Under the pieces are notes generated by a model, which saw nothing but the letters and a program-made list of their open reading frames with translations, had not been told where the DNA came from and did no database searches. Shown piece after piece: positions 35,983 to 37,659 of a stretch of DNA of 64,000 nucleotides (position 1 is its first letter; each line of letters opens with the position of its first letter). Source of the stretch: Eubacterium sp. CAG:180 (GTDB lineage Bacteria > Bacillota > Clostridia > Oscillospirales > CAG-272). Position numbers and translations under genes: made by a program. The DNA lies in NCBI GenBank assembly GCA_963628215.1, contig CAVGEJ010000001.1:12571-76570 (forward strand), in the 5' to 3' direction.

Positions 35983-37659
35983 GTGGCAAACTGTCTGACG
36001 CTGAAAAAATCCAATTGCAAAAACTGCTATAAATGCATCCGGCATTGCCCCGTTAAGTCCATCCGCTTTTCGGGCAATCAGGCGCATATCATCGGAAACG
36101 AGTGCATTCTCTGCGGTCAGTGCTTTGTGGTCTGCCCGCAGAATGCCAAGCAGATCGTGGACGAGACCGAAAAGGTTAAGGTTCTGATCCAGTCCGGTGA
36201 TCCCGTTTATGTCAGTCTGGCGCCGTCCTTTATCGCCAACTATGCGGAAATCGGCATCGAAGGGATGCGGAAGGCGCTGAAAAAACTCGGCTTCGCGGAC
36301 GCGGAGGAAACGGCGATCGGAGCAAACATCGTCAAGACCGAATACGAAAAACTTCTGGCAGAGGGCGACCGTGATATTGTGATCTCCTCCTGCTGTCATT
36401 CGGTCAATCTGCTGATTCAGAAGTACTTCCCGCGCGAGTTGGAAATGCTCGCCGACGTTCTGTCACCGATGCAGGCGCACTGCCGCGACATCAAACGGCG
36501 TGTCCCGAACGCAAAGACCGTTTTCATCGGTCCGTGCGTGGCAAAAAAGGACGAGGCGGAGTATTACAGCGGCATTGTGGATGCGGTTCTGACCTACGAG
36601 GAACTCACCGCATGGTTTGACGCGACGCATGTGCGGTTGGAACCGGATATGGATCACACAGAGGAAAGCCGCGCGCGCTTCTTCCCGACAACGGGAGGAA
36701 TCCTCAAAACGATGGCGCAGAACGCCCCGGGATATGCCTATATGGCAATCGACGGCGTAGAAAACTGCATTGCCGCGCTGCGCGACATCGAAAGCGGGAA
36801 GATTCACAAGTGCTTTATCGAAATGTCGGCGTGTATCAGCAGTTGCGTCGGCGGTCCTGTGATGGAGAAATACCACCGCGCCCCGGTTGCGGATTACATG
36901 GCGGTTGCGCAGTATGCGGGCTCGCGCGATTTCAATGTCGCTCAACCCGAAAGCGATACGTTGCGCAAGCATTTTGAGCCGATCGAACGTCGGTACGGAA
37001 CGCCGAGCGAGGACGAGATCGCCGAAATCCTGCGCAAAATGGGGAAAACCAAACCCGAGGACGAATTGAACTGCGGCTCATGCGGGTATGATACCTGTCG
37101 GGAAAAGGCGATTGCAATCTATCACGGTAAGGCGGAAATCTCCATGTGCCTGCCGTATCTCAAGGAAAAAGCCGAAAGCTTTTCCGATTGCATCGTCAAC
37201 AATACGCCGAACGGTCTGATCGTTGTCAACGACGCATTGGAAGTTCAGCAGATCAACGCGGCGGCAAGAAAGATCATGAACATCCGCTCCGCTTCGGATA
37301 TTCTGGGAGATCAGGTGGTTCGGATTCTCGACCCAACCGTTTTTCTCAAAGTTCTGGAAACCAAACGGAGCATCCGCGATCAACGCGTGTACCTCGCCGA
37401 ATACAAGAAATATGTGGAGCAGACCGTGGTGTACGACAGCACCTATCAGATGCTTGTCTGCATCATGCGCGACGTGACCGACGAGGAAACCGAGCGTGAA
37501 AAGAAAGAGGACATCAGCCGCCGCACGGTGGAAATTGCCGACAAGGTGGTTGACAAGCAGATGCGGATTGTGCAGGAGATAGCCTCTCTGCTCGGAGAAA
37601 CGGCGGCGGAAACCAAGATCGCGCTGACCAAGCTGAAGGAGAGTATTTCCGATGAATGA
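35983..37659 (+). CDS. hydS: HydS-like putative sensory [FeFe]-hydrogenase (2x[4Fe-4S] ferredoxin + H-cluster domain + Cys4 + PAS + coiled coil)
   Basis: GTG start after [19 protein letters not shown] / [12 protein letters not shown] are followed by the H-domain motifs [15 protein letters not shown] and [13 protein letters not shown]. After those come CGSCGYDTC, a PAS-like stretch ([14 protein letters not shown]...ILGDQV) and a charged helical tail. Confidence 0.85.
   Translation: [558 protein letters not shown]

Follow-up and report, generated by a model that had tools for sequence, protein, structure and literature searches.

The question raised by this locus is whether the first of two co-encoded [FeFe]-hydrogenases is a catalyst or a sensor. 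The locus lies in a 64,000-nucleotide stretch of DNA from Eubacterium sp. CAG:180 (contig CAVGEJ010000001.1), which is referred to here at its full length as the window, and the gene in question, hydS, occupies positions 35983-37659 of its forward strand, upstream of the hydrogenase gene hydA. A first-pass annotation, made from the sequence alone, had described HydS as a sensory-type hydrogenase. Our analysis supports this view through orthology with HydS of Ruminococcus albus 7, a shared nine-gene block, scores that fall short of the group A and group B1 family models, and a PAS fold. On the basis of sequence, HydS is classed as a putative sensory [FeFe]-hydrogenase of group C with the M2f architecture, and we consider it most likely (probability of about 0.8) that this group C paralog is an H2 or H2/redox sensor and not a bulk catalyst. 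HydS is already known: both its ortholog and the cluster that encodes this ortholog have been described, and public databases contain a protein that is 98% identical to it. Our additions are minor: a list of diagnostic substitutions, the group B assignment of the partner enzyme, the quantified conservation of the C-terminal tail and of the overlap with the downstream gene, and the finding that the cysteine at position 299 of the reference hydrogenase CpI is variable in the family.

Classification of HydS

HydS scored 60.5 bits against TIGR02512, the NCBIfam model of group A (cut-off 405.95), and 190.5 bits against TIGR04105, the model of group B1 (cut-off 450). It fails both, and the family models thus do not place it among the group A enzymes. 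The group A motif set (TSCCPxW, MPCxxK and ExMxCxxGCxxGGG) with an intact proton pathway is likewise not found in HydS. The neighboring HydA (38843-40264) reached 569 bits against TIGR04105 and belongs to group B1. The first-pass annotation had used HydA as its catalytic standard; it is indeed co-encoded and carries the motifs quoted for it, but it is not a prototypical group A enzyme.

Published work defines M2f, or group C, by two [4Fe-4S] sites, an H-domain, a Cx2Cx4Cx16C motif and a PAS domain (PMC8163306, PMC13104023). HydS has an H-domain with four cysteine ligands, two N-terminal cluster motifs, the Cx2Cx4Cx16C motif and a PAS domain. The residues equivalent to M353 and M497 of CpI are replaced (G183 and S282), and the protein shares 69% identity with a classified member, R. 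albus 7 HydS. Group D (M2e) enzymes have no PAS domain and carry Ser or Thr at M353, whereas HydS has the PAS domain and Gly at that position. HydS therefore fits group C on every sequence criterion tested, except that it retains a cysteine equivalent to C299.

Domain layout and cofactor sites

The features of HydS are as follows, with positions in the window and the basis for each in brackets.

35983-37659, forward strand: hydS, group C (M2f) putative H2-sensing [FeFe]-hydrogenase, 558 amino acids (translation, ribosome-binding site, Pfam, R. albus 7 orthology, AlphaFold2)
35983-36162, forward strand: N-terminal ferredoxin-like domain with two CxxCxxCxxxCP motifs (C12/15/18/22 and C41/44/47/51) for two [4Fe-4S] clusters (sequence, Fer4 families)
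36202-36858, forward strand: H-domain, residues 74-292 (PF02906, E = 1.3e-45; CpI mapping)
37072-37149, forward strand: Cx2Cx4Cx16C (C364, C367, C372, C389), C-terminal accessory [4Fe-4S] site (PF04060, 'Putative Fe-S cluster', E = 1.6e-10)
37192-37476, forward strand: PAS domain, approximately residues 404-498, with the DIT-type end D497-V-T499 (PF00989, PAS_9, PAS_4, PAS_8; AlphaFold2)
37477-37656, forward strand: C-terminal helical tail, helices 499-537 and 539-557 with a break at G538 (AlphaFold2)
37546-37635, forward strand: tail core, residues 522-551 (family conservation)

The two N-terminal motifs span residues 12-23 and 41-52 and are matched by Fer4 families of Pfam. Seven of the N-terminal cysteines are listed as invariant and C12 as conserved in at least 90% of sequences; C44 appears in neither list. 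The short motifs that the first-pass annotation had quoted for HydS are all present, with SSCCHS at residues 135-140, GPCVAKK at 183-189, the third H-cluster motif at 280-292 and CGSCGYDTC at 364-372. Those quoted for HydA (TSSCCPAF, GPCTAKK and EGMACVGGCIGG) are found in its open reading frame (ORF) at 38843-40264. The H-cluster ligands C138, C185, C284 and C288 align to C300, C355, C499 and C503 of CpI and are invariant in all 121 family sequences, which bears out the earlier statement that all four are retained.

CGSCGYDTC and the PAS segment had been presented as elements added to the hydrogenase. Both are real, and all four cysteines of Cx2Cx4Cx16C were present in 120/120 family sequences; they are, however, the family-defining architecture and not a peculiar addition (PMC8163306). 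On full-length HydS, PF00989 scored 20.6 bits, under its cut-off of 22.6, while on the C-terminal 169 amino acids alone it scored 23.1 bits, above the cut-off. At the exit of the PAS domain, in the motif D497-[IV]-T499, Asp was found in 112/121 sequences and Thr or Ser at position 499 in 118/121.

An AlphaFold2 model of HydS alone, built from 97 family representatives with 32-62% identity, had a predicted local distance difference test score (pLDDT) of 93.6 and a predicted template modeling score (pTM) of 0.84. A shallow alignment of 35 sequences with 85-98% identity gave a pLDDT of 55 and was unusable. In the model, a ferredoxin-like domain at the N-terminus is followed by the H-domain, a short stretch of helices around the Cys4 site, a PAS-type unit and two terminal helices. 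The earlier suggestion of a PAS-like segment agrees with the modeled five-stranded PAS topology in residues 411-497 (strands 411-415, 420-424, 464-471, 476-485 and 490-497, with helices between them and pLDDT >90). A PDB sequence search and a Foldseek search with the model matched group A [FeFe]-hydrogenases only, and no solved group C structure was found among these matches.

Active site of HydS compared with HydA and the family

Active sites were compared by aligning 119 family representatives with CpI, with HydS and HydA of the window and with their R. albus counterparts. The CpI reference sequence of 574 residues, 100% identical to PDB 1c4a/1feh, provided the numbering. Equivalent residues are listed below.

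CpI C299: HydS C137, HydA C274
CpI P301: HydS H139, HydA P276
CpI E279: HydS Y121, HydA E260
CpI E282: HydS L124, HydA E263
CpI R286: HydS G128, HydA K267
CpI S319: HydS A157, HydA S294
CpI M353: HydS G183, HydA G320
CpI K358: HydS K188, HydA K325
CpI F417: HydS F234, HydA F376
CpI M497: HydS S282, HydA M430
CpI G501: HydS S286, HydA G434
CpI G502: HydS S287, HydA G435

Four of the five group A proton-transfer residues are gone from HydS (E279Y, E282L, R286G and S319A, leaving Y121, L124, G128 and A157 at the former pathway positions), and M353G and M497S are found in addition. HydA keeps E279, E282, S319, C299 and M497 and has a conservative Lys at R286. The clean contrast between the two enzymes is thus the loss of the proton-transfer pathway together with M497S in HydS. 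M353 and M497 frame the diiron site and are replaced in sensory subclasses (PMC8163306). The first-pass annotation had compared EMSAC of HydS with EGMAC of HydA, which hides the Met to Ser change at M497, the second-sphere difference recognized in the literature. HydA, like HydS, has Gly at M353 and Met at Q325, so neither of these two residues is sensor-specific. The serine and proline at S323/P324 of CpI are retained in HydS as S161/P162.

The second sphere of HydS comprises C137, H139, G183, S282, S286 and S287. Two of these differences, Pro to His after the CC pair and Gly to Ser before the last ligand, had been stressed earlier as setting HydS apart from HydA. They are present in HydS, but they are not diagnostic. 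At P301 the family has Pro in 102 of 121 sequences and His in 11, the carriers of His all being closer relatives (at least 37% identity, mostly >44%), and at G502 it has Gly in 72/121 and Ser in 42/121. These counts indicate clade-level variants and not hallmarks. S286, at the G501 position, is peculiar to HydS of the window; Gly occupies this position in >90% of close relatives.

The cysteine at C299 is stated to be not conserved in these sensory subclasses (PMC8163306). Of the 121 family sequences, 42 have Cys at this position, 33 have Ala and 32 have Ser, and the R. albus-type clade keeps Cys. As about one third of the family has the cysteine, its published absence holds for only part of group C.

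Gene boundaries and homologs

The coordinates 35983-37659 given by the first-pass annotation were found to be right. The GTG start lies 7 nucleotides (nt) 3′ of the ribosome-binding site AAGGAGGG and 3 nt past the stop codon of the preceding ferredoxin gene. An alternative ORF from an upstream ATG (35854-37659) would encode 601 amino acids and overlap the ferredoxin gene by 127 nt. The 120 closest database homologs of HydS are nearly all 557-558 amino acids long and start at the position equivalent to the GTG, and R. albus 7 HydS likewise has 558; this agreement supports the GTG start. One public record (P0006), 97% identical to HydS, has 601 amino acids, begins at the upstream ATG (35854-35982, overlapping the ferredoxin gene) and is named 'histidine kinase'. 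Neither an H-box nor a His that could serve a DHp-type kinase domain is present in the tail of HydS, and the name looks like annotation carry-over. Both the start and the name of this record look wrong.

An exhaustive search of representative sequences with HydS returned 889 clusters (50% identity) at E < 1e-30, and the best 150 of these were mostly full-length proteins of 550-590 amino acids covering residues 1-558. A profile search for a diverse set of HydS homologs yielded only one cluster, approximately 79% identical to the query, which gives no more than a taxonomic hint (Candidatus Borkfalkia-like).

The hydS gene cluster and its counterpart in R. albus 7

The other features of the cluster are listed here in order of position.

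31273-31301, forward strand: sigma-70-like promoter candidate 5′ of rex, TTGCAA-17-TACAAT with TG (consensus match only)
31329-34656, forward strand: rex (31329-31961) and adhE (31975-34656), first genes of the putative operon (Pfam, R. albus collinearity)
34670-35419, forward strand: protein-kinase-like phosphotransferase (APH/RIO/Bud32-like) with the catalytic loop HGDFNPSN (Pfam and NCBIfam scans)
35472-35980, forward strand: two small thioredoxin-like [2Fe-2S] ferredoxin genes (35472-35717 and 35714-35980), directly 5′ of hydS (PF01257)
37652-38824, forward strand: PP2C/SpoIIE-family Ser/Thr phosphatase gene, 390 amino acids, phosphatase domain approximately residues 18-225 (Pfam)
38843-40264, forward strand: hydA, monomeric group B1 [FeFe]-hydrogenase of the HydA2/HfsD type, with E260, E263, S294, C274, M430 and K267 (TIGR04105, CpI alignment)
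40458-40485, no strand assigned: G+C-rich hairpin of 11-12 bp between the convergent hydA and ruvB, bidirectional terminator candidate (consensus match only)

A tblastn search of HydS against a plasmid collection led to plasmid pRUMAL01 of R. albus 7. The region found there encodes LysR, Rex, AdhE, a phosphotransferase, two (2Fe-2S) ferredoxins, an [FeFe]-hydrogenase-domain protein of 558 amino acids, a SpoIIE-family phosphatase and HydA2, which is annotated as a 4Fe-4S dicluster protein. All nine genes, LysR included, are collinear with the window. Identities to the R. albus orthologs are 55% for LysR, 51% for Rex, 76% for AdhE, 72% for the kinase, 75% and 53% for ferredoxins 1 and 2, 69% for HydS (558 amino acids, 0 gaps), 79% for PP2C and 74% for HydA against HydA2. 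PP2C is the best conserved protein of the cluster despite the fact that its C-terminal 170 amino acids (residues 221-390; 38312-38824) matched no Pfam family even at E values up to 10 and no PDB chain.

The two HydS proteins share SSCCHS, the Cx2Cx4Cx16C spacing, the tail core and the 8-nt overlap, as the pRUMAL01 phosphatase gene also starts 8 nt before the preceding stop codon. In the L2 and L3 motifs they differ only at V[AS]K and AC[IN][SG]SC; the usual residue before S287 is Gly, where the window protein has S286. The locations also differ: in the window the block lies on the chromosome, between proC/lysR and ruvBA, whereas that of R. albus 7 is on a 420-kb plasmid. Greening et al. (2019, PMC6776011) placed R. 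albus 7 HydS among the putative sensory hydrogenases of group C and noted its PAS domain and its association with a Ser/Thr phosphatase. In that work the eight-gene R. albus cluster was down-regulated 111-fold when a partner organism consumed H2 (PMC6776011), and a 90-fold down-regulation is given for HydA2 elsewhere (PMC10838669).

Thermoanaerobacterium hfsABCD has the same core order, namely a small Fe-S protein, a PAS-hydrogenase (HfsB), a PP2C/Ser phosphatase (HfsC) and a HydA2-like ferredoxin-linked hydrogenase (HfsD). By its description, HfsA differs in kind from the two thioredoxin-like ferredoxins of the window. HydS of the window has its ortholog in R. albus 7 and its counterpart in HfsB. 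Deletion of hfsB in Thermoanaerobacterium shifts fermentation to ethanol, which is genetic evidence for a regulatory PAS-hydrogenase (PMC11837493).

Among characterized enzymes, the group C (M2f) protein TmHydS of Thermotoga maritima has the same order of two [4Fe-4S] sites, H-domain, Cx2Cx4Cx16C and PAS. Its G177 and S267 correspond to G183 and S282 at M353 and M497 (PMC10055695, PMC8163306), and the E279/E282/S319 pathway is conserved in neither protein (PMC10055695). TmHydS differs in having Ala at C299 (A131) and Tyr at F417 (Y223), where HydS of the window has C137 and F234; HydS also has His in place of Pro after the CC pair. TamHydS of Thermoanaerobacter mathranii, a group D (M2e) enzyme, resembles HydS in its N-terminal clusters, altered-pocket H-domain and Cx2Cx4Cx16C motif (PMC8163306, PMC13104023). 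TmHydS and TamHydS both show low H2 turnover and a stabilized reduced state (PMC10055695, PMC8163306).

Conservation of the cluster

Synteny was examined in 80 species-level loci encoding HydS of 60-87% identity, from metagenome-assembled genomes of gut and rumen Clostridia and from Butyrivibrio sp. MC2013; the denominators below are loci with enough flanking sequence. The PP2C gene adjoined hydS in 75/75 loci, a group B HydA gene lay 3′ of hydS in 56/66, and at least one small ferredoxin gene lay 5′ of it in 73/78. The kinase gene was present in 43/72 loci and the AdhE gene in 23/50. Monoglobus pectinilyticus has the same Fd-HydS-PP2C-HydA core.

The first-pass annotation had placed the end of HydS 8 nt inside the PP2C gene, and this is exact. 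Positions 37652-37659 (ATGAATGA) belong both to the end of hydS and to the beginning of the PP2C gene, and the overlap measured exactly 8 nt in 78/78 loci. HydS is translationally coupled to PP2C through this invariant overlap.

We regard rex, adhE, the kinase gene, the two ferredoxin genes, hydS, pp2c and hydA as one putative transcription unit, bounded by the promoter-like site at 31273-31301 and the hairpin at 40458-40485, which has T-rich runs on both strands, imperfect on the forward strand. Near-consensus Rex boxes were seen approximately 20-30 nt 5′ of rex in some relatives (loci L028, L030, L069 and L072), for example TTGTTATAATATTAACAA in L030. No Rex box of this consensus was found before rex in the window or in R. 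albus 7.

Very close relatives of the window organism, unlike R. albus 7, have no adhE in the block. In three such relatives with 98%-identical HydS (loci L082-L084, positions 1047-2421), the kinase gene directly follows rex (compare 31961-34670 in the window). The Rex C-terminus of these relatives, ...KVKAATKRKG*, resembles the C-terminus of AdhE in the window, ...AAGGKKKG*, and the spacer after their rex, ggagggacagagg, differs at 2/13 positions from the spacer after adhE of the window. These likenesses suggest a deletion that fused the 3′ end of rex to the 3′ end of adhE.

The surroundings of the cluster in the window are chromosomal housekeeping genes, including Gln/Glu-tRNA synthetase paralogs, aromatic amino-acid biosynthesis genes and genes for NrdD, ProA, ProC, RuvABC, a Clp ATPase and Ffh. 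The synthetases are tandem class I Glu/Gln-tRNA synthetase paralogs of 554 and 571 amino acids on the reverse strand at 10403-13801. Three long reverse-strand ORFs, at 2707-4047, 57874-59778 and 62907-63851 (446, 634 and 314 amino acids), had no Pfam match at E <= 1e-5 and are candidate genes.

The C-terminal tail

The first-pass annotation had noted a highly charged C-terminal helix of about 60 amino acids and called it a coiled-coil tail. The segment is helical and real; the model, however, predicts two helices with a break at G538, with pLDDT of approximately 94 at residues 501-510 and 63-78 past residue 520. When entropy was calculated per column over the family, two 20-residue windows of the protein stood out, the Cys4 motif at 361-380 (0.95 bits, the lowest) and the tail core at 521-540 (0.97 bits). 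Both were more conserved than every window containing an H-cluster motif.

The tail consensus is V-I-x-K-Q-M-R-V-A-Q-E-I-A-[SG]-L-L-G-E-T-T-A-E-T-K-V-x-L-x-K-L, and its core, KQMR[IV][AV]QEIA[SG]LLGETTAETK, is conserved on a par with the Cys4 site. A534 and G538 did not vary in the 97-sequence alignment, and in the larger one of 121 sequences G538 was found in 121/121 and A534 in 120/121. Positions 540, 541 and 544 are Thr in 103-106 of 121 sequences, and Thr or Ser in 113, 103 and 117, respectively. The peptide [QH]EIA[SG]LLGE was one of the two most conserved peptides picked by the locus finder. This family-wide conservation indicates that the tail is a specific and strongly constrained element and not a generic coiled coil.

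A Pfam scan of the tail alone, at E values up to 10, gave only chance-level matches (Talin_IBS2B and ABC_AB) and no family. A likeness by eye to the C-terminal helix of chemoreceptor signaling domains found no support and was dropped. In a small sample of the literature, which was not a systematic search, we found no description of the tail or of its conservation equal to that of the Cys4 site.

A possible parallel is RsbP of Bacillus subtilis, in which the order of PAS domain, coiled-coil or helical linker and PPM phosphatase appears to be mirrored across the hydS/pp2c boundary (PMC3183031, PMC12143880). The RsbP linker controls phosphatase dimerization and activity (PMC3183031, PMC12143880). 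RsbP is one polypeptide whereas the window encodes two, and RsbP-type PAS domains are without the DIT-type motif that ends the PAS domain of HydS (PMC3183031). The cluster of the window also differs from the RsbP system in having no STAS-domain substrate and no GHKL kinase.

Function of HydS and alternative explanations

Based on the family literature, we suggest that H2 would bind and slowly turn over at the H-cluster of HydS, with a stabilized reduced state. The resulting redox or conformational change may pass through the C-terminal region and a PAS dimer to the tail helices. The tail would then modulate PP2C, opposed by the co-encoded kinase, and the pair would set the phosphorylation of some target. 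The output would be the expression or activity of the ferredoxin-dependent HydA2 and AdhE, so that high H2 may turn fermentation toward ethanol.

PP2C itself lacks an N-terminal linker, and its phosphatase domain begins at approximately residue 18. We put forward only tentatively, and think it rather unlikely, that in group C sensors it is the tail hairpin that delivers the output. The hairpin might act in trans as an N-terminal linker for PP2C, in a split RsbP-like device of PAS, linker and PPM phosphatase, or alternatively T540, T541 and T544 might form a phospho-switch written by the kinase and erased by PP2C.

Several points weigh against a sensory role or against parts of this scheme. The literature consistently uses the word 'putative' for group C sensors, none of which has a demonstrated signal output that depends on H2. 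The clade of the window keeps the cysteine beside the azadithiolate (adt) amine (C137, C299 in CpI), which TmHydS lacks, and some catalytic proton delivery may thus persist. The C-terminal cluster of the group D enzyme TamHydS is not reduced by H2 (PMC13104023), which weakens a redox relay through the corresponding cluster. Searches for the Rex operators TTGTGAAN6TTCACAA and TTGTTAAN4TTAACAA (with up to 3 mismatches) found none near the promoter of the window, and matches were no more frequent than in shuffled sequences. Finally, a distant, 37%-identical HydS of Acetoanaerobium noterae (locus L085, positions 4992-9951) has the same tail and no adjoining PP2C gene, which weakens a PP2C-specific docking role for the tail. 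Its hydS is flanked by an unassigned ORF of 236 amino acids and, on the opposite strand, by genes for a RelA/SpoT-domain protein and an HD-GYP-type HD_5 protein, and this locus may have a different output wiring.

Of the alternatives, the one that survives best is that HydS senses the intracellular redox state (the ferredoxin/NADH pool) and not H2. The Fe-S clusters and PAS domain would report electron pressure from the two [2Fe-2S] ferredoxins, while the H-cluster merely equilibrates the pool with H2. The nearly constant position of thioredoxin-like ferredoxin genes directly 5′ of hydS is in keeping with this idea, as are the presence of Rex, an NADH sensor, within the same block and the unresponsiveness of the TamHydS C-terminal cluster to H2. 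However, a complete H-cluster site throughout the family would be hard to explain were H2 irrelevant, and the regulation of the R. albus cluster follows the H2 level (PMC6776011). We therefore consider pure redox sensing improbable.

It was also considered whether HydS could itself be catalytic, as part of an Hfs-type hydrogenase of several subunits (Fd-Fd-HydS-HydA) that evolves or takes up H2; the PAS domain and tail would then have a role in assembly and not in signaling. When it was first identified, the hfs operon was held to encode the main hydrogenase for H2 production (PMC11837493); TmHydS and TamHydS are active, though slow, in H2 turnover (PMC10055695, PMC8163306), and HydS keeps the H-cluster ligands, the lysine at K358 and the adt-proximal cysteine. 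Yet the proton pathway is largely lost from HydS and kept in the neighboring HydA, and the PAS domain and translationally coupled PP2C are signaling parts. Further, the hfsB deletion on its own does not abolish growth but alters fermentation regulation, and HfsD alone restores the phenotype (PMC11837493). A catalytic subunit is on these grounds very unlikely.

That HydS is a degenerate Nar1/Narf-like protein with Fe-S clusters only and no [2Fe]H subcluster is hardly credible, for although several second-sphere residues are changed and no hydE, hydF or hydG was recognized among the approximately 30 ORFs of the window that were scanned, the protein retains its four cysteine ligands, K188 (K358), S161/P162 and C137, TmHydS and TamHydS incorporate [2Fe]H (PMC10055695, PMC8163306), and HydA needs the same HydEFG-type maturases, which must thus be encoded elsewhere in the genome.

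Significance

Sensory [FeFe]-hydrogenases are thought to set how reducing power is split among H2, acetate and ethanol in gut and rumen Clostridia, which bears on methane emission and on H2 cycling in the gut. The window adds an uncultured lineage of gut or rumen Clostridia to the carriers of the R. albus-type cluster, here in a further chromosomal copy, and leaves this picture unchanged. The conservation of the tail, the invariant 8-nt overlap and the adt-proximal cysteine kept in approximately one third of the family may nevertheless aid work on the signaling step.

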